A DNA stretch of 64,000 nucleotides from assembly GCA_002362385.1 (NCBI GenBank), contig DEUB01000042.1:14033-78032 (forward strand), written 5' to 3'. The translations under genes were made by a program, and so were the position numbers. The notes beneath the pieces were generated by a model. That model was not told the origin of the DNA, did no database searches, and worked only from the letters and a program-made list of their open reading frames with translations. Positions 9,688-49,950 of the stretch are shown piece by piece. The DNA is from Lachnospiraceae bacterium UBA3273. Lineage in GTDB: Bacteria; Bacillota; Clostridia; Lachnospirales; Lachnospiraceae. Positions within the stretch are counted from its first letter, which is position 1, and every line of letters begins with the position of its first letter.

Positions 9688-10446
9688 ATGAACAGGCATA
9701 AAAAGATAACCGTATTGGTATGTGTATTTCTAACATCTTTGAGTATCGTTGCCTGCGGGAACGCAAACGAAGATGAATTTGCTGCAAATCAGCAGGAAAG
9801 CGATCTGCAGACAAATGAGAGTGCTGATTCGGATATAAAAGATGATGAAATCGCAAATGCGGAGAAAGCCTCATTAAATCAGCAGGAAAGCAATGAACAA
9901 GAGGTTGAAAATGCAGATTCGGAAATGACGGCAGAAGAAATATTGGATTTATTTATTGATGGTTCCATAAACGCAGCTTATTCCACAGATCCGACAGCGA
10001 CATTTTATATCAGCGATTTAAAAATGGATTCTGATGAATGGGATTCATTTTCTCTCGGAGAGAAAGTCGATCTTGACAATGACGGAGAAAACGAACTCAT
10101 TATTTGCGGTCCCTATGGCGGAAAATACCTTGATGCGCGTGATAACAAGGTATATGAATTTGCTGCGGGAGGCGGCACCGCTCTCGCGCTCTCTTATACC
10201 TATTATAATGGTTCTGTATGGATCATGTACAGCAACTCAATGAATGCAGGATATAAAGCTTACCATATGGAAAAATTTGAGGGAGCCGATAACTTAGTCG
10301 CAGAAATGAACTTCGGCGAGGAACTTGTCGACCCAAATAATTCAGAATCGGGAATGAAATATACATGGAACGGAACAGAAATTTCTTACGATGAATATAC
10401 GGCATTATGCAGCAAAATTTTTGCTGCCGAAGTAAGTACAAACTGA
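9688..10446 (+). CDS. hypothetical lipoprotein
   Basis: GGAGG RBS; signal peptide with lipobox IVAC; acidic linker; DLDNDGENEL motif. Confidence 0.8.
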   Translation: MNRHKKITVLVCVFLTSLSIVACGNANEDEFAANQQESDLQTNESADSDIKDDEIANAEKASLNQQESNEQEVENADSEMTAEEILDLFIDGSINAAYSTDPTATFYISDLKMDSDEWDSFSLGEKVDLDNDGENELIICGPYGGKYLDARDNKVYEFAAGGGTALALSYTYYNGSVWIMYSNSMNAGYKAYHMEKFEGADNLVAEMNFGEELVDPNNSESGMKYTWNGTEISYDEYTALCSKIFAAEVSTN

Positions 10447-39559: not shown

Positions 39560-40165
39560 TTATACTACTGCTTTTTTGCGTTTTATATATTCTTCATATG
39601 TCCTTTCTGGCAGTCGCAAATCATCTTCATACATCTTATCCCACAGTTTTGATGCTGAATCATGAGTAATAATCTTCAGTTCTTCTGCTTTTGCTAATAC
39701 ATCTGCCGTAGTCCATAGAACGATTCCATAACTGTCTACATATGCACTGACATCCTTTAAATTGTTACTTGCCAAGCAAGCAGTCTCCTCTTTTGCATAA
39801 AGCACCATGCTTATAGCCGCTGACTCTCCCTGACCCATATTTTTCTTTAATTCTTCATATCTTATTCCCATATCAGAAAAGGGATCGATATCTCTAATAT
39901 ATACATTTCCCGCACCATGTACTTTTTCTTTTTTATTATTCAGCCGAATAAGTGGAGTTTGCAAACGCTCCCTTGTTCTAATGCTATAGCCCAGTTCTTC
40001 CATCACGGCTTGTGGAACTACTATATCCATTCCCAATTTTTCAAAAAGTCTTGTCACAATTCCAAATTGACCCCTCCATAAGAAACTTGACAAAAAATCT
40101 GTATCGGAAATTACAATTGCACTTTTATCAGACGTATCATTTACTTCTTTACCCTGGCTAGTCAT
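39560..40165 (-). CDS. PIN-domain-like protein
   Basis: IVISDTDFLSSFL, VPQAV.EEL, MG.GES.AI, LASNN..D; AGGAGG RBS before ATG 40165. Confidence 0.72.
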   Translation of the reverse strand: MTSQGKEVNDTSDKSAIVISDTDFLSSFLWRGQFGIVTRLFEKLGMDIVVPQAVMEELGYSIRTRERLQTPLIRLNNKKEKVHGAGNVYIRDIDPFSDMGIRYEELKKNMGQGESAAISMVLYAKEETACLASNNLKDVSAYVDSYGIVLWTTADVLAKAEELKIITHDSASKLWDKMYEDDLRLPERTYEEYIKRKKAVV

Positions 40166-40913
40166 ATATAAGCGCCTCCTTAACCATTTCGTTCCAGCGC
40201 TCATCACAAAATCCTTCAAGAGCAAATTGCTTATAAAGACTATCTGAAATCCGTTCCTCTTTATGTGCCCGCTCAAGGAGCTGGCTATATTGTCCATATG
40301 ACTTTTCCATTTCTTCTTCAGGAGATTTCATATATAAGGACATATCTATTCCCGTATCCTTAACATTATCTAAAATATTTGCATTTATTAATTCATGATA
40401 ACGAAGGTCGTTGATTTTCTCTTCCTGATGCAACCTATATACAATCGCCTGAAAACTCATACGAAAAAACTGACTTAACCTTACAATATGTTCTAATGTC
40501 CACTCTTTCACTCCATATTTTTCAATGAACCATTCTAATGCATCGCAAGGAAGCAAAAAATAAGATGCGAAACGATCTGCCTCCTTTTCAGAATCCGTTT
40601 TACTTCCCTTTTTGCAAATAACTCCTTGTCCTCTACACTCAATTTCCATATGATACAACTCATGCGCAACAGTAAACCGCTGTCTCCCCAAAGACATCAT
40701 GGAATTTACGGCAATTATTTTAGAAGCTCCATCAATAATGCACATTCCACTGATATTGTCCGTCATGGGCAATCTGATAAAGGTATAACGTTCTTGTGCC
40801 ATCAATAATCCAATCACATCTATCGGTTCTGTACTCCCATAACCATTTATTCTTCTCTGTTTGACAGCTTCCGTCTGTAATTGCAAATCATCTTTCATTA
40901 CAATATCACTCAC
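40158..40913 (-). CDS. ImmA/IrrE family metallopeptidase
   Basis: RQRFT.AHELYH (HExxH), E.EAD.FA..FL.P, F..S..A..YRL. Confidence 0.9.
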   Translation of the reverse strand: MSDIVMKDDLQLQTEAVKQRRINGYGSTEPIDVIGLLMAQERYTFIRLPMTDNISGMCIIDGASKIIAVNSMMSLGRQRFTVAHELYHMEIECRGQGVICKKGSKTDSEKEADRFASYFLLPCDALEWFIEKYGVKEWTLEHIVRLSQFFRMSFQAIVYRLHQEEKINDLRYHELINANILDNVKDTGIDMSLYMKSPEEEMEKSYGQYSQLLERAHKEERISDSLYKQFALEGFCDERWNEMVKEALIYD

Positions 40914-41259
40914 TCTCTAAACTAGCCTTAATCCGTCTCAAATTCAGTGCAATCCTCTGTACCTTTGAAACTACCTCAATATCATCCAATGTTAAATCTT
41001 TTGCCCGATAAGCTACTGCAAGCGGCTGGTATTCCTGTTCCTCCAAAACTGCATTTACTTCACAGCCAAACAGCCTGCATGCCTTTTCAAGCGATGCCAT
41101 TCCAAGGCTTCTTTCTCCAACTTCAAATTTTGCAATCAAAGAGCGGTCTACCTGAAGAAATTGTGCAATCTGCTCTTGAGTAAAATCATTTTGCCTTCTG
41201 ATTTCTTTAAAACGCCTTCCGGCATTTACCAGCATTTCATTTCTCTCTTTGTCTGCCAT
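40906..41259 (-). CDS. XRE family HTH transcriptional regulator
   Basis: R.....TQEQIA..L.V.RS.IA..E.G. Confidence 0.88.
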   Translation of the reverse strand: MADKERNEMLVNAGRRFKEIRRQNDFTQEQIAQFLQVDRSLIAKFEVGERSLGMASLEKACRLFGCEVNAVLEEQEYQPLAVAYRAKDLTLDDIEVVSKVQRIALNLRRIKASLESE

Positions 41260-41299
41260 ATGAATTTCCTCCGATTTTCTAATCATCTTTTGTTATCTT

Positions 41300-46203: not shown

Positions 46204-47448
46204 TTATTTCCAGTCAATGGATCCGCTAAAGACTACCTTATTCCTGCCTTTTGCAATCTTTCCGACTTCATAGCATTCATAATATTTTTGTACTGTATCT
46301 ACAACCTTTTTCTCCTCTTCCCTTTCCACCACAATCATGAACCCCACGCCGCAGTTAAAAGTGGACAGCATTTCTTCCTGCCCGATATTTCCTTTATTTC
46401 GGATATAGGAAAAAACAGGAAGGGGCTTTATTTTTGTCAAATCAATTTCCGCGCTTAAGCCGTCAGGCATTATCCTGCTTAAATTTCCTTCTATCCCGCC
46501 GCCTGTAATATGGGCCATCCCGTGAACATACGGACAGCCGAATAAATTTTTGACAGCTTTGTAATAAGGGGTGTGCGGTTTCATAATTTGCTCTATAAAT
46601 GTTTCTCCCTGGATTTTATCAAGCTTTATCTGCGGCATTTTATCCATAAGCATCCGCACAAGGGAGTAACCGTTTGTGTGAAGCCCATTAGAAGCAACTG
46701 CTAACACCACATCTCCTTCCCTGACCCGCGAACCGTCAATAATATTTTCCCTCCCCACGATTCCTGCAACACTTGATGTGAGGATATAGACGCCTTTCTC
46801 AATCACTTGCGGCTGAATGGAAGTCTCGCCGCCTACCAGATCACATTCATTTTCCCTGCACGCTTCTGAAATTCCTTTTACAAAAGATTTTATTGTTTCT
46901 TTTTCCGCATTGCCGCACACAATAGTGTCCAATACTGCTAAAGGTCTCGCGCCCATAACAACAATATCATTGACCAGATGGTTTATCATATCATGGCAGA
47001 TGGACTCACTATAGCCGTATTCCATGGCTAACTTTTGTTTTGATCCCGGTTCTTCCGCCTTCAAAACAAGAACCGGGTTTTTGATTTCCGGAAAATGAAT
47101 ATCATACAGGGATGCGAATGGGCCAAATCCATTTAAGACACGCTCATTTTCCGTCTTTAAGTAAACCGCCATTTCCCTTTTCATGGCGTCGGTATAAGAA
47201 ATGTCCACACCTGCCTTACTATACGAAAAACTTTCATTTTTCTTTTCTTCTCCATTTAAAATTTCATCCACGCTGACCCGCAAAAGCTTTGCCAGTTCCA
47301 CAAGCATTTCCACATTGGGCAGGGTTCCGTTTTCCCACTTGGAGACAGCCTGAAAGGAAACCTTTAATTTTTCCGCCACATCCGCCTGGGTCAATCCCAA
47401 AGCCTTTCTTCTATGTGAAATGAACTTTGCAATCTTCTGATTATCCAA
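46204..47448 (-). CDS. XRE-HTH fused to divergent PurM (AIR synthetase-like) protein
   Basis: N-terminal TQ.DVAE.L.VS.QAVSKWE.G; then YSKAGVD, VND...GA.P, GGET, GLH.NGYSL, HITGGG, FN.G.G; TTG start. Confidence 0.85.
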   Translation of the reverse strand: MDNQKIAKFISHRRKALGLTQADVAEKLKVSFQAVSKWENGTLPNVEMLVELAKLLRVSVDEILNGEEKKNESFSYSKAGVDISYTDAMKREMAVYLKTENERVLNGFGPFASLYDIHFPEIKNPVLVLKAEEPGSKQKLAMEYGYSESICHDMINHLVNDIVVMGARPLAVLDTIVCGNAEKETIKSFVKGISEACRENECDLVGGETSIQPQVIEKGVYILTSSVAGIVGRENIIDGSRVREGDVVLAVASNGLHTNGYSLVRMLMDKMPQIKLDKIQGETFIEQIMKPHTPYYKAVKNLFGCPYVHGMAHITGGGIEGNLSRIMPDGLSAEIDLTKIKPLPVFSYIRNKGNIGQEEMLSTFNCGVGFMIVVEREEEKKVVDTVQKYYECYEVGKIAKGRNKVVFSGSIDWK

Positions 47449-47463
47449 TAAAAAGCACCAACC

Positions 47464-47504
47464 TTTCCTGTTCTTATTGTATAAAACAGGAAACATTGAT
47501 GCAA
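47464..47504 (-). promoter_or_regulatory. sigma-A promoter with inverted-repeat operator
   Basis: TTGCAT-17-TACAAT on minus strand; TTTCCTGTT/AACAGGAAA inverted repeat straddling the -10. Confidence 0.65.
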
Positions 47505-47581
47505 TAACCGGATATTTGAAGATATAAAAAAATTTCTACCAGGAGTTGAATGATATGTTTTATCCCAAACAACAGAAATAA

Positions 47582-47669
47582 CGGAAAGGAAAGGATTCGA
47601 ACCTTCGGTACACTTGCGCGTACGGCGCATTAGCAATGCGCTGCCTTAGACCATCTCGGCCACCTTTCC
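47582..47669 (-). tRNA. tRNA-Ser(GCT), CCA not encoded
   Basis: acceptor GGAAAGG/CCTTTCC, discriminator G, anticodon arm GCGCA-TTGCTAA-TGCGC, long variable arm with GCAA loop, TTCGAAT T-loop. Confidence 0.92.
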
Positions 47670-47673
47670 ATAA

Positions 47674-47757
47674 TGGATGGGGCAGGACTCGAACCTGCGT
47701 TGTTTCTTATGTCAGGGTTTTACAGACCCCTGCCCTCGCCACTAGGCATACCCATCC
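47674..47757 (-). tRNA. tRNA-Tyr(GTA), atypical, CCA not encoded
   Basis: acceptor GGATGGG/CCCATCC, discriminator A, anticodon arm GGGGT-CTGTAAA-ACCCT, T arm GCAGG-TTCGAGT-CCTGC; 3-nt acceptor-D linker and poorly paired 15-nt variable region. Confidence 0.85.
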
Positions 47758-47818
47758 TTATTGTTTTAGGGGGACTTCCCGGCATTTCCGGTTAAAGAAT
47801 GCCGGTGTCCCTTTAATC

Positions 47819-48073
47819 TTACGCGCCTATTTGTGTAGACGCCGCAATATTTATAACAAGAATATCATCTACCTGTACCTGAAAAATTACCGCCAATACT
47901 ACCAGATTATCTACGGAGGGCAAGGCCGTACCCTGCTGCCATTTGTAGATTGCCTGGGGTGTGGAGAAGCCAAAAATATTCTGGATATCTTTCACGGATA
48001 ATCCTTTTTCTTTCCTTAACTGTGTGATATTCTGTCCTGTTTTAACCATGTCAATGGTGGGAATTTGTATCAT
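47819..48073 (-). CDS. XRE family HTH transcriptional regulator
   Basis: AGGAGG RBS; LR..KGLSV..Q..FGF..PQAIYKWQ.G..LP. Confidence 0.9.
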   Translation of the reverse strand: MIQIPTIDMVKTGQNITQLRKEKGLSVKDIQNIFGFSTPQAIYKWQQGTALPSVDNLVVLAVIFQVQVDDILVINIAASTQIGA

Positions 48074-48149
48074 TTTTATGTCCTCCTGTTCTGGCAGACT
48101 GACGGTAAATAAGCTTCCCTTCTGGAGGTTTTAGCTTTTCTCTTCCCCC

Positions 48150-48280
48150 GACGTGCCTTAATCGCACAATTGCTTCGCAATCATGCGATTATAGGGCTTC
48201 GCCCTATAAGCTATATTTGCAAACCGTCTGATGGTAAGCAAGCTTCCCCTCAGACGCTTTACAAATATAGCTTGCACGTC
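48150..48280 (-). other. four-way-junction structured element (RNA or ssDNA) directly after the rtcB stop
   Basis: closing stem GACGTGC/GCACGTC plus three arms; two GC-GAA-GC loops on minus strand. Confidence 0.7.
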
Positions 48281-49480
48281 TCAGTTTGCCTTAAAGTTAT
48301 AAATCGGTTTCATGATGTCTATGACAGTTACGGATTCTTTGATGACGTCTATGATGTCTTCTAAAGATTTGTATGCCATAGGCGCTTCGTCTAATGTTGC
48401 TTCATTTACGGAAGTAGTATAGATTCCTTCCATTTCGCGTTTATAATCGTCCATATCCAAATTTTCCTTTGCTTTTTTTCTGGACATGATCCTTCCTGCC
48501 CCGTGGGGTGCGGAATAGTTCCATTCGGGATTGCCTTTACCCACGGCTAATACACTTCCGTCTCTCATATTAATAGGAATCAATACTTTCTCCCCTTCGT
48601 GGGCGGCAATGGCGCCTTTTCTTAAAATCATTTCTTCCGTATCAATATAATTATGAATGGTATGAAAGGAATCCGCGCCGCTCATACCCGTTCTATCCAA
48701 TAACACCTCCGCTATTTTTTCACGGTTTCTTCTGGCAAAGGTCTGGCAGATTTCCACATCAAAAAGATAATCTTCCAAATAGCTTCCATACAAAAAGCAT
48801 AAATCCTCCGGCATGGTTGCCTCCCTCTTATTCCAGGAGATCGCCTCTAAAGCTGCCTGTATTTCTTTTCTTCTGCCGGCCGCTTTATATTCACGGATAA
48901 TGGCGTCCCTTTCCTGAAAGTAAGTTTCCTTTCCTTTATTTAAATCAATTGCTAACTGCTGATAGATTTCCGCAACCTGCTTTCCAAGATTCCTGCTCCC
49001 GCTGTGTATCACAAGATAATTGGTTCCGTCCTCTGCCCGGTCAACCTCTATAAAGTGGTTTCCTCCGCCTAATGTACCCAGGCTTCTTTCTAACCTTTTC
49101 GTATCTCTAAGGCTTCTATAGCAGCGAAGAGCAGTCAGATCAAATCTTTCCTGTCTGCCTTCCCACACATTCATACCGGAAGGCACAAAATGTGCGGCTT
49201 CATCCAGCTTTTCAAAATCAATATCGCCTTTCCCCAAGGTTACCGTATACATCCCGCATCCGATATCCACTCCTACAATATTGGGAACGGCTTTATCCGT
49301 AACCGTCATGGTAGTTCCGATGGTGCAGCCTTTTCCCGCATGGACGTCGGGCATGATCCTTATCCTGCTTCCTTCTGTAAATTCATAATCGCACATCCGT
49401 CTGATCTGCTCTATAGCTTCATCTTCCACTACCTTCGCATAGCAGACAGCAGTATTCACTTTTCCTTTAATCTCCAACAT
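48281..49480 (-). CDS. rtcB: RtcB family RNA ligase (2',3'-cyclic/3'-phosphate to 5'-OH)
   Basis: MPDVH.G.G..IG, VGVDIGCG, LGGGNHF.E, HSGSR, HNY, SAPHGAGR. Confidence 0.95.
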   Translation of the reverse strand: MLEIKGKVNTAVCYAKVVEDEAIEQIRRMCDYEFTEGSRIRIMPDVHAGKGCTIGTTMTVTDKAVPNIVGVDIGCGMYTVTLGKGDIDFEKLDEAAHFVPSGMNVWEGRQERFDLTALRCYRSLRDTKRLERSLGTLGGGNHFIEVDRAEDGTNYLVIHSGSRNLGKQVAEIYQQLAIDLNKGKETYFQERDAIIREYKAAGRRKEIQAALEAISWNKREATMPEDLCFLYGSYLEDYLFDVEICQTFARRNREKIAEVLLDRTGMSGADSFHTIHNYIDTEEMILRKGAIAAHEGEKVLIPINMRDGSVLAVGKGNPEWNYSAPHGAGRIMSRKKAKENLDMDDYKREMEGIYTTSVNEATLDEAPMAYKSLEDIIDVIKESVTVIDIMKPIYNFKAN

Positions 49481-49590: not shown

Positions 49591-49629
49591 ATAATAAAAC
49601 CGCCTATCTCTCATATAAGATAAGCGGTT
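49591..49629 (-). terminator. attenuator terminator upstream of rtcB
   Basis: AACCGCTTATCT/AGATAGGCGGTT 12-bp stem then TTATTAT on minus strand. Confidence 0.8.
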
Positions 49630-49663
49630 CCTAAAATCCATGAAGTCTATGAATCATCCGACA

Positions 49664-49783
49664 TCACACAATTCTGCATCTTTGCCTTATCTTACATGAG
49701 CGCATAAAAGTTAAGCTCTGATCTTTCCTCAGTGCCTGATAACTTCTTTCTTCCAGATAATCAAATCGAAAAATTGTGTTCAT
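49664..49783 (-). CDS. putative leader peptide, 39 aa (MNTIFRFDYLEERSYQALRKDQSLTFMRSCKIRQRCRIV)
   Basis: GAAAGGA RBS, ATG 49783, TGA 49664-49666; lies between a promoter and a terminator and contains a segment complementary to the terminator. Confidence 0.75.
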   Translation of the reverse strand: MNTIFRFDYLEERSYQALRKDQSLTFMRSCKIRQRCRIV

Positions 49784-49836
49784 CGTTATTATTTCCTTTC
49801 CGGGTCAGCCTTAGACCGCTTTTTTATCTAATCCCT

Positions 49837-49865
49837 AATATAACACAAGAAATTTGTTCTGTCAT
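49837..49865 (-). promoter_or_regulatory. sigma-A promoter for leader/rtcB
   Basis: ATGACA-17-TGnTATATT (extended -10) on minus strand. Confidence 0.7.
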
Positions 49866-49950
49866 TATACCTGCGCTATAATTTTTCATTTTTTTGCATC
49901 AAGGTTAGATATATGCCCCGCTTTTAATTCCGTTTCTGGACACTCAATCT

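Follow-up and report, generated by a model that had tools for sequence, protein, structure and literature searches.

Why should a Lachnospiraceae chromosome carry, besides its ordinary tRNA genes for tyrosine and serine, another tRNA-Tyr and another tRNA-Ser packed 4 nucleotides (nt) apart at the end of a gene cluster that starts with an RNA ligase? The question is raised by a stretch of 64,000 nt from Lachnospiraceae bacterium UBA3273 (assembly GCA_002362385.1, contig DEUB01000042.1, positions 14,033 to 78,032; hereafter the window, to which all coordinates refer unless another contig is named). On its minus strand, the window encodes, in this order, an RtcB RNA ligase, an 84-amino acid (aa) protein of the XRE family, tRNA-Tyr(GTA), tRNA-Ser(GCT), and a fusion of an HTH_3 domain with an AIR-synthase-like domain. 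Cleavage of tRNAs is increasingly recognized as a major weapon of phage defense and bacterial warfare, and replacement tRNAs have so far been shown by experiment only for phages. From the evidence described below, the two genes are rather likely to be supernumerary, spare tRNAs at the 3′ end of an inducible operon for tRNA repair and replacement.

Two tandem tRNA genes downstream of an RNA ligase

The 64-kb window was searched with ARAGORN and with the Rfam model RF00005 (gathering score 29). ARAGORN detects two tRNA genes and no more, each on the minus strand, and Rfam agrees: tRNA-Tyr(GTA) at 47757..47674 (53.8 bits, E 7e-10) and tRNA-Ser(GCT) at 47669..47582 (55.8 bits, E 2e-10; the ends given by ARAGORN are 47670..47581), with a 4-nt spacer, TTAT, by the Rfam boundaries. 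An earlier note on this DNA, made from the letters alone, had described two class II tRNAs 4 nt apart downstream of an RNA ligase; this arrangement holds, with the rtcB gene upstream on the same strand and the gene for the 84-aa XRE protein in between. The peculiarities of tRNA-Tyr to which the note had pointed are reproduced as well. One extra base after U8-A9 makes a 3-nt UAU linker before the D stem (Rfam alignment), a G27.U43 pair tops the anticodon stem (ARAGORN drawing), and the variable region, GACAUAAGAAACAAC, is a 15-nt, A-rich, unpaired stretch without a stem (ARAGORN). The long variable-arm stem-loop typical of bacterial tRNA-Tyr is missing from this gene, with a conserved ACAnAGAAACA in its place.

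The tRNA-Ser has a regular class II shape with a paired long variable arm of 6 bp (ARAGORN). Both anticodon loops, CUGUAAA in tRNA-Tyr and UUGCUAA in tRNA-Ser, have 7 nt with U33 and a purine at position 37, the T-loop GGTTCGA is present in the pair, and the discriminators are A73 in tRNA-Tyr (which ends in ...CCAUCC-A) and G73 in tRNA-Ser (...UUUCC-G). The lack of an encoded 3′ CCA, which had been listed among the atypical features, is true of both genes but is not atypical: none of the 24 tRNA genes of the assembly encodes CCA, so that its absence is uninformative. By their Rfam scores and, for tRNA-Tyr, by the covariation within the class described below, the window tRNAs are authentic-looking elongator tRNAs.

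Accessory rather than housekeeping tRNAs

The assembly (75 contigs, 94% complete, 24 tRNA genes, 35 scaffold N-runs) contains other genes for both isoacceptors. In a tRNA pattern search over the 18 genomes of the genus, nearly every genome proves to have a canonical tRNA-Tyr (GGATGGATTCCCGAGTGGCCAAAGGGGACAGACTGTAAATCTGCTGCAAATTGCTTCGGTGGTTCGAATCCACCTCCATCCA), in the contexts of a Tyr-Leu(UAA) pair and of an Asp-Val-Thr-Tyr-Met-Phe-Lys cluster. In the genome analyzed here, ARAGORN finds a single tRNA-Tyr, which would leave the window gene as the sole one; this possibility was rejected. The canonical gene is present on contig C25, its first and last 22 nt flanking a scaffold N-run, directly upstream of tRNA-Leu(UAA) and with a promoter-like site of its own in front, and the apparent single tRNA-Tyr is an assembly artefact because the scaffold gap splits the canonical gene. 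The second tRNA-Ser(GCT) resides on contig C55 behind a TTGACA/TATAAT promoter, and genes of this type (87–100% identity, mostly 94–100%) are found in nearly all 18 genus genomes. The window copies share 67% (Tyr) and 62% (Ser) identity with the canonical genes.

The window-type genes, in turn, are distributed patchily. The variant tRNA-Tyr is present in 6 of the 18 genus genomes, the other five of which each possess the canonical gene too; the Tyr-Ser pair occurs in 3–5 of the 18, and the window-type tRNA-Ser is confined to the cassette-bearing genomes of the genus. By consensus scan only, no sigma-70-like promoter was detected in the 61 nt that separate the XRE gene from tRNA-Tyr. Given the distinct, conserved canonical copies elsewhere and the lack of a visible promoter of its own, the pair represents neither the sole housekeeping isoacceptors nor identical copies of them under a promoter of their own, and the suggestion of the earlier note that these are accessory tRNAs is well supported by the comparison with the other Tyr and Ser genes of the genome and genus. 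Chimerism of the metagenome-assembled genome was considered as a source of the duplicates and is unlikely: variant and canonical genes coexist in the genome designated G012 and in four other genomes, so chimeric binning offers no explanation.

The acceptor stem of the variant, GGAUGGG/CCCAUCC, is alike in 6 of 7 bp to that of the canonical host tRNA-Tyr, GGAUGGA/UCCAUCC, and both have A73. A second tyrosyl-tRNA synthetase (TyrRS) dedicated to the variant was sought in the genome and none was found, tyrS being present in one copy. The host-like acceptor stem and A73, along with the single tyrS, fit charging by the housekeeping TyrRS, by which the variant tRNA-Tyr is predicted to be aminoacylated.

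A recurrent cassette in Lachnospiraceae

The RtcB-XRE-Tyr-Ser order recurs in four further genomes of the genus. Across the family, sampled as one genome per genus for 150 Lachnospiraceae genera, a close RtcB orthologue is encoded in about 26 genera, in about 12 of which the XRE gene adjoins it. Other tRNA sets flank RtcB-XRE at four further loci: Lys upstream with Glu and Ser downstream; Ser, Lys, and Leu upstream with Arg, Glu, Glu, Tyr, and Ser downstream; Lys upstream with Glu and Tyr downstream; and Leu upstream with two Arg genes downstream.

The XRE protein, an alignment of which contains 25 invariant columns across 14 homologues, is the marker of the cassette. A scan of this protein alignment against one genome per GTDB species yielded at least 576 homologous stretches, and the adjacent tRNAs were checked for the best 80 loci. 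All of these 80 are Lachnospiraceae-like (Acetatifactor, Otoolea, Parablautia, Dorea, Eubacterium plexicaudatum ASF492, and Butyrivibrio included); tRNA genes directly adjoin the XRE homologue in 69 and RtcB precedes it in 13, most arrays having no RtcB beside them. Among these best loci, the commonest layout is leader-Lys(UUU)-XRE-Glu(UUC)-Glu(CUC)-His(GUG)-Tyr(GUA)-Ser(GCU), with spacers of 0–5 nt, and the arrays mostly comprise about 5–6 tRNAs (range 1–8), with 25 or more in Butyrivibrio only. The tRNA species vary between cassettes and include Lys, Glu, His, Tyr, Ser, Arg, and Leu. Judged by gene content and order, the window is an RtcB-linked, two-tRNA version of a widespread, XRE-marked family of accessory tRNA arrays. 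Our literature searches found no published account of the Lachnospiraceae RtcB/XRE/tRNA cassette, its XRE marker, or its leader.

At three Butyrivibrio loci (L162, L163, and L164), the same leader family and XRE gene precede arrays of at least 25 tRNAs covering most amino acids; these are a form of the cassette within Firmicutes that resembles the L-arrays discussed below. At the syntenic RtcB-XRE locus of G012 (L039, G012:C1, ~9,880–9,975, minus strand), the hairpin that follows the XRE gene in the window is retained along with only the first ~30 nt of tRNA-Tyr, and a NERD-like gene and another open reading frame (ORF) stand in place of the tRNAs and the HTH-PurM gene; a second contig of this genome carries a complete Lys-XRE-Glu-Glu-His-Tyr-Ser array. 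The truncated tRNA-Tyr, with an array elsewhere, marks the tRNA part as the variable part of the cassette, and the site looks like a replacement scar, suggesting a hotspot of gene exchange. At a locus of another genome (G182:C21, L077, 3544–4745), RtcB is matched as two overlapping pieces (350 and 63 aa) with the flanking tRNAs intact, which suggests a frameshifted gene or a pseudogene.

A leader ORF and a probable attenuator in front of rtcB

All parts of an attenuator are present upstream of rtcB in the window, namely, a Shine-Dalgarno (SD) sequence, a short ORF, a U-run terminator, and a competing antiterminator over the end of the ORF. A consensus scan places a promoter, ATGACA-17-TG-TATATT, at 49865..49837 on the minus strand. 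Its -35 and extended -10 elements fall within a palindrome-like motif, TATAATGACA-N13-16-TGTGTTATA (window 49835–49875), that is conserved over the leader families at ~15 loci and is a plausible operator for the XRE protein. The leader ORF that follows, MNTIFRFDYLEERSYQALRKDQSLTF|MRSCKIRQRCRIV, has 39 codons (49783..49664, minus strand; SD GGAAAGGAAA; peptide MNTIFRFDYLEERSYQALRKDQSLTFMRSCKIRQRCRIV) and is succeeded by an intrinsic terminator (49631..49591, minus strand) in which a 15-bp stem precedes UUUUAUUAU. The 5′ strand of the antiterminator is supplied by the MRSCKIR codons (CUCAUGUAAGAUAAG; 49700..49686), which are complementary to the 5′ arm of the terminator, and the antiterminator folds at -28.3 kcal/mol versus -20.2 kcal/mol for the terminator. 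Given this complementarity, full translation of the leader would mask the antiterminator, and an earlier stall of the ribosome would free it. A conserved AAGCGG upstream of the leader SD and a CCGCTT in the terminator arm are complementary.

The promoter motif, SD, ORF family, and terminator stand before the first cassette element in more than 70 loci, whether or not these loci include RtcB or tRNAs, and the antiterminator is conserved as well. From the leader to the end of tRNA-Ser, the consensus scan detects no promoter-like or terminator-like site on the minus strand of the window, which fits, and is no proof of, one transcript. Co-transcription of the leader, rtcB, the XRE gene, and the tRNAs is predicted, as is induction by tRNA shortage.

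A statistical tendency of leader codons to match their arrays

In the sensor parts of 59 distinct leaders, the serine codons are AGY in 142 cases and TCN in 27, compared with 5:59 in the leader tails and 67:126 in neighboring genes. This AGY excess is a synonymous bias and, as such, points to tRNA-Ser(GCU). The commonest leader (…AYYLHSEHYEALFSKEKEQS…) is made up largely of codons for Tyr, His, Ser (AGY), Glu, and Lys, in agreement with the five tRNA species of its own array. Over 14 leader families, the fraction of sensor codons that are read by the tRNAs of the leader's own array is 0.283, versus 0.227 ± 0.013 in permutations, none of 20000 of which reaches the observed value; in this test, the families and the sensor boundaries were chosen by the analyst, and the families are related. 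A strict one-to-one correspondence between leader and array was rejected, the match being a statistical tendency only.

The sensor part of the window leader contains two Tyr (UAU) and two Ser (AGU, AGC) codons, along with Glu, Lys, and Arg codons. Outside the chromosomal cassettes, a phage-like scaffold, MT835946.1 (‘Bacteriophage sp.’, human feces; L171, 2380–3520), has the promoter motif, a leader ORF, a terminator, and an XRE homologue (44% identity). Its array comprises Lys, Tyr-like, Phe, Ser(UGA), Ser(GCU), His, and Cys tRNAs, and its leader, MLTAIKFCKSSYSFKHSSYSKKNSIV…, includes Phe, Cys, and TCN-Ser codons. The Tyr-like gene of this scaffold has C33 in place of U33 and is missed by ARAGORN.

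A tRNA-Tyr class shared with phages

In BLAST searches, the Tyr half of the window pair matches phage records at 80–84% identity; the genes hit are annotated as tRNA-Tyr and come from Bacillus phages (BCP78, TsarBomba, and relatives) and from a human-fecal phage scaffold. An exact-pattern scan of IMG/VR places the class in five viral contigs, two of which are 239 kb and 193 kb long, the latter with a 31-tRNA array. Common to the phage members are the UAU linker, a D-arm of the sequence GCCUAGYGGCGAGGGC, and the ACAnAGAAACA variable region without a stem, and their acceptor stems differ in a compensatory way. In an alignment of 19 class members (14 bacterial and 5 phage), the cloverleaf is 98% paired, with both-side changes in 11 of 21 pairs; none of 500 shuffles reaches this level and slid registers are far off. 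The G27.U43 pair noted above is kept in 15 of the 19. The tRNA-Tyr of phage T5 (NC_005859, L172, 35340–35427) also has the 3-nt UAU linker but retains a variable stem-loop; possibly, this linker is characteristic of phage-type tRNA-Tyr in general.

A phage origin of the window tRNA-Ser was considered and rejected: its anticodon arm has no exact match in IMG/VR, and no phage BLAST match extends over the Ser half. The commoner Ser type of the cassettes has one viral-contig match, in a different tRNA context.

The variant differs from the host tRNA-Tyr in the variable region, which is stemless versus a GCA/UGC stem-loop, and is identical to the housekeeping copy in the anticodon loop. The variable region is where some known tRNA-Tyr nucleases act. 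Retron-Eco7 PtuAB depletes tRNA-Tyr of Escherichia coli (PMC11555353); Septu cuts tRNA-Tyr at positions 48/49, in the variable-arm stem, and cleavage of tRNA-Tyr in the variable loop has likewise been attributed to retron-Eco7 (PMC13096335). The T5 tRNA-Tyr is resistant owing to its distinctive variable loop (PMC13096335, PMC11555353), and PARIS is neutralized by the T5 tRNA-Lys (PMC11464382). By analogy, it is plausible that the variant tRNA-Tyr resists variable-arm nucleases. One can tentatively go further, on a conjecture that we find more doubtful than convincing, and regard the stemless class as a distinct, widely exchanged “nuclease-proof” tRNA-Tyr of jumbo/Herelle-type phages and Lachnospiraceae chromosomes, built in bacteria into a self-rescue circuit of codon-matched leader, RtcB, and spare tRNAs. 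If true, the leader peptide would gauge the damaged tRNA pool directly and turn on repair and replacement at once. Bacteria would then have their own version of what phages do in the arms race centered on tRNAs, directed against tRNase toxins of other bacteria or serving to recover from abortive-infection nucleases of the cell itself.

Proposed mechanism and alternative explanations

An inducible repair-and-replacement operon might work as follows. Transcription would start from one promoter upstream of rtcB and meet the ribosome-sensing leader. During smooth translation of the 39 codons, the ribosome would cover the antiterminator strand, the terminator would form, and the operon would stay off; a stall in the sensor part, at Tyr, Ser-AGY, Glu, Lys, or Arg codons, would allow the antiterminator to form, and read-through would then produce the transcript of rtcB, the XRE gene, and both tRNAs. 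RNase P and 3′ processing would free the tRNAs, the ends of which would be completed by the CCA-adding enzyme. RtcB would reseal tRNAs broken by ribotoxins, with their 2′,3′-cyclic phosphate and 5′-OH ends, and the spare tRNAs would replenish the pool. The variant tRNA-Tyr may outlast an attack that destroys the housekeeping tRNA-Tyr, because its variable region lacks the stem that is cut by PtuAB of the Septu or retron type. In this scheme, the signal would be damage to tRNAs, as opposed to a general stress on translation.

Several observations weigh against this reading. Bacterial TyrRS contacts the variable arm through its C-terminal domain, so a stemless region might impair recognition of the variant. 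The identity of its anticodon loop with that of the housekeeping copy indicates no escape from loop-reading nucleases such as colicin E5. Taken singly, the window leader matches its array weakly (Tyr or AGY at 4 of 25 sensor codons; binomial p = 0.04), and it also has Glu, Lys, and Arg codons without a matching spare tRNA; elsewhere, His codons occur in some leaders whose arrays lack tRNA-His, and the leaders of RtcB-only loci are similar. The permutation test, moreover, used related families and sensor boundaries set by the analyst. A leader that senses uncharged tRNA would fire in amino-acid starvation as well, when extra tRNA is useless. Finally, no terminator is evident after tRNA-Ser.

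The alternative explanations are less likely. One of them, that these are ordinary redundant copies, expressed constitutively to add dosage, with a meaningless rtcB neighborhood, we regard as improbable. Both genes do score as normal tRNAs, the missing CCA is the norm of the genome, and tight tRNA clusters are common in Firmicutes (PMC8421152); however, mere dosage does not account for the recurrence of the XRE gene, the tRNAs, and the same leader, with or without RtcB, in many genera with changing tRNA content, or for a pair with 62–67% identity to the housekeeping genes, found in about a third of the genus, with no promoter of its own in sight. Unlikely, if less so, is a general response to translational stress, such as that caused by antibiotics, in which the leader peptide would stall by virtue of its amino-acid sequence and the tRNAs would buffer the pool, no particular tRNA being sensed. 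Such a response would resemble those governed by the leaders of PA5471.1-armZ, erm, and bmrCD: the motif M-x-T-x-N-R/F-F-x-Y-L is kept in the leaders at the amino-acid level, RtcB-only loci included, the Anabaena rtcB and trn array are induced by translation inhibitors (PMC8421152), and armZ is induced by ribosome-targeting drugs via a leader peptide (PMC12057347). What peptide conservation leaves unexplained is the synonymous bias for AGY over TCN and the way in which leaders track their own arrays, down to the Phe, Cys, and TCN-Ser codons of the phage-like scaffold.

The normal anticodon loops, the A73 and G73 identity nucleotides, and the host-like acceptor stem also bear on the idea that the two RNAs have a non-translational role, as decoys for toxins or as partners or cofactors of RtcB, in the manner of the predicted b7a-tRNA or the YrlA Y RNA. 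They argue against it, as do the varied anticodon sets that track the leader codons, unlike a single dedicated cofactor, the absence of RtcB beside most arrays, and the lack of a Band-7 or Rsr (Ro) domain in the cassette or the immediate neighbor genes. In its favor, tRNA-like RNAs are repeatedly encoded beside RtcB (bioRxiv 10.1101/312249, citing Burroughs and Aravind 2016), the operonic tRNAs of Anabaena have been proposed to act as a sponge (PMC8421152), and the atypical linker and variable region could lower the translational use of tRNA-Tyr; on balance, we give this idea little credence. Least of all do we expect the pair to be a functionless relic of a phage or another mobile element, left by a tRNA array or by duplication of an attachment site. 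This would agree with the membership of the tRNA-Tyr in a class common to phage arrays, with the leader-XRE-tRNA layout of the ‘Bacteriophage sp.’ scaffold, and with the tRNA-Tyr of the syntenic G012 locus, broken off after ~30 nt and followed by other genes. Yet the locus is not flanked by phage or integrase genes and lies in chromosomal DNA that is syntenic in five genomes of the genus, the compensatory stem changes across genera indicate purifying selection on structure, and the acceptor stem matches the host tRNA-Tyr, not the phage versions.

Relation to known systems

A close counterpart of an operon for repair and replacement is found in Anabaena, where translational stress switches on rtcB together with a silent array of 26 tRNA genes, both being controlled by the repressor TrcR (PMC8421152, PMC10272220); rtcB adjoins tRNA arrays in other cyanobacteria as well (PMC8421152, PMC10272220). 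The study of these L-arrays set Firmicutes aside, tRNA operons being the norm there (PMC8421152). Like the trn operon of Anabaena sp. PCC 7120, the window has extra, non-housekeeping tRNAs that are tightly packed and linked to RtcB, along with a small DNA-binding protein and a proposed role in surviving translational stress. Unlike the L-arrays, which hold 26–43 tRNA genes, it has two, apparently in one operon with rtcB itself; control is apparently exerted by a leader-peptide attenuator and the XRE protein rather than through the direct repeats of TrcR, there is no HNH (all8564-like) neighbor, and the replicon is a Lachnospiraceae chromosome, not a cyanobacterial megaplasmid.

With the counter-defense tRNA-Tyr genes of T5 and T6, directed against retron-Eco7 PtuAB and Septu, the window shares an extra tRNA-Tyr that differs from that of the host in the cut region, and the same sequence class is found in phage arrays, the UAU linker also in the T5 tRNA-Tyr. 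It differs from these phage tRNAs in being encoded on a chromosome, with a repair ligase and under bacterial stress-type control, and, compared with T5, the variable region of its tRNA-Tyr is stemless rather than an altered stem-loop.

Leader control of an RtcB-like gene has a precedent in Pseudomonas aeruginosa, where the PA5471.1 leader peptide controls the RtcB-like armZ (armZ-prfH) (PMC12057347). The window resembles the trp, his, pheST, and PA5471.1 attenuators in its short ORF, terminator, and antiterminator that overlaps the 3′ end of the ORF, and PA5471.1-armZ, additionally, in that the controlled gene is RtcB-like. Unlike in these attenuators, the products of the window operon include tRNAs that read the leader's own codons, and the sensor mixes amino acids without a single-residue run; nor is there sequence similarity to PA5471.1.

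The b7a-tRNA (predicted) and the YrlA Y RNA, the latter in rsr-rtcBA operons, are tRNA-like RNAs described beside RtcB (bioRxiv 10.1101/312249; Burroughs and Aravind 2016, as cited there). The window likewise has a gene for a tRNA-shaped RNA beside rtcB in a context of RNA repair, but its family consists of authentic-looking elongator tRNAs with varied anticodons, most cassettes being devoid of RtcB.

New with respect to all these systems is the combination, in a probable operon on a Firmicute chromosome, of repair and replacement with a sensor of translation, and the use there of a tRNA-Tyr architecture shared with phages. The locus defines a conserved non-canonical tRNA-Tyr architecture and suggests that common gut bacteria own an inducible kit made of a mending ligase, spare tRNAs (one of them phage-like in design and possibly resistant to cutting), and a translation-based sensor of tRNA shortage. 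Carriers of the cassette in culture include Acetatifactor muris DSM 23669, Otoolea muris DSM 111138, Eubacterium plexicaudatum ASF492, and Butyrivibrio sp. VCD2006, so that the idea is directly testable.

Cassette genes and genomic neighborhood

The RtcB ligase of the window (399 aa; 49480..48281, minus strand; Pfam PF01139, E 5e-56) aligns with Pyrococcus horikoshii RtcB (PDB 1uc2/4dwq) over the motifs DxH, DIGCG, GGGNHF, HSGSR, and HGAGR, which correspond to the residues for metal binding and guanylylation in the Pyrococcus enzyme. A spacer of 207 nt (48074..48280), which may serve in processing or stability, separates rtcB from the gene for the XRE-family helix-turn-helix (HTH) protein, designated HTH84 (84 aa; 48073..47819, minus strand; Pfam HTH_3), which is presumed to be an autoregulator. 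The linkage of RtcB and the tRNAs is physical: they are on the same strand, with the tRNAs ~500 nt downstream and the order conserved. Between the XRE stop codon and tRNA-Tyr there is an 8-bp hairpin, CCGGCAUU ... AAUGCCGG (47779..47805, minus strand), without a U-run, the one retained in G012; possibly, it shields the mRNA 3′ end after cleavage by RNase P.

The fusion of HTH_3 with an AIR-synthase (PurM)-like domain (Pfam) is encoded directly downstream of the tRNA pair (47496..46204, minus strand). Its membership in the cassette is doubtful because it follows the pair in 3–4 genus genomes only; it is absent from the cassettes of other genera. No Band-7 or Ro60 (Rsr) family member was detected among the 7 ORFs run through Pfam, which included the cassette genes, the upstream CASTOR/POLLUX-type channel, and the downstream HTH-PurM-like gene.

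The wider surroundings are syntenic chromosome, with a two-component system, an ABC transporter, and, upstream, a CASTOR/POLLUX-type channel; the synteny is held in five genomes of the genus, without flanking phage or integrase genes. In five genus genomes that lack the module, no orthologue of the flanking histidine kinase was found at E <= 1e-60; the neighborhood is not conserved there, so that no clean boundary of insertion or deletion can be drawn.

Elsewhere in the assembly, there are two differing tmRNA genes (C27:299557–299893 and C66:32969–33313, with tags AEDNLAYAA and ADENLAFAA) as well as two tRNA-Gly(CCC) genes; these duplications could stem from slight contamination, a strain mixture, or a mobile-element tmRNA. 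Farther downstream on the minus strand of the window, at 39560–41286, an XRE HTH gene, an ImmA/IrrE-type metallopeptidase gene (PF06114), and a third ORF, for which Pfam gives no match, make up what looks like a mobile-element or defense-related regulatory module.

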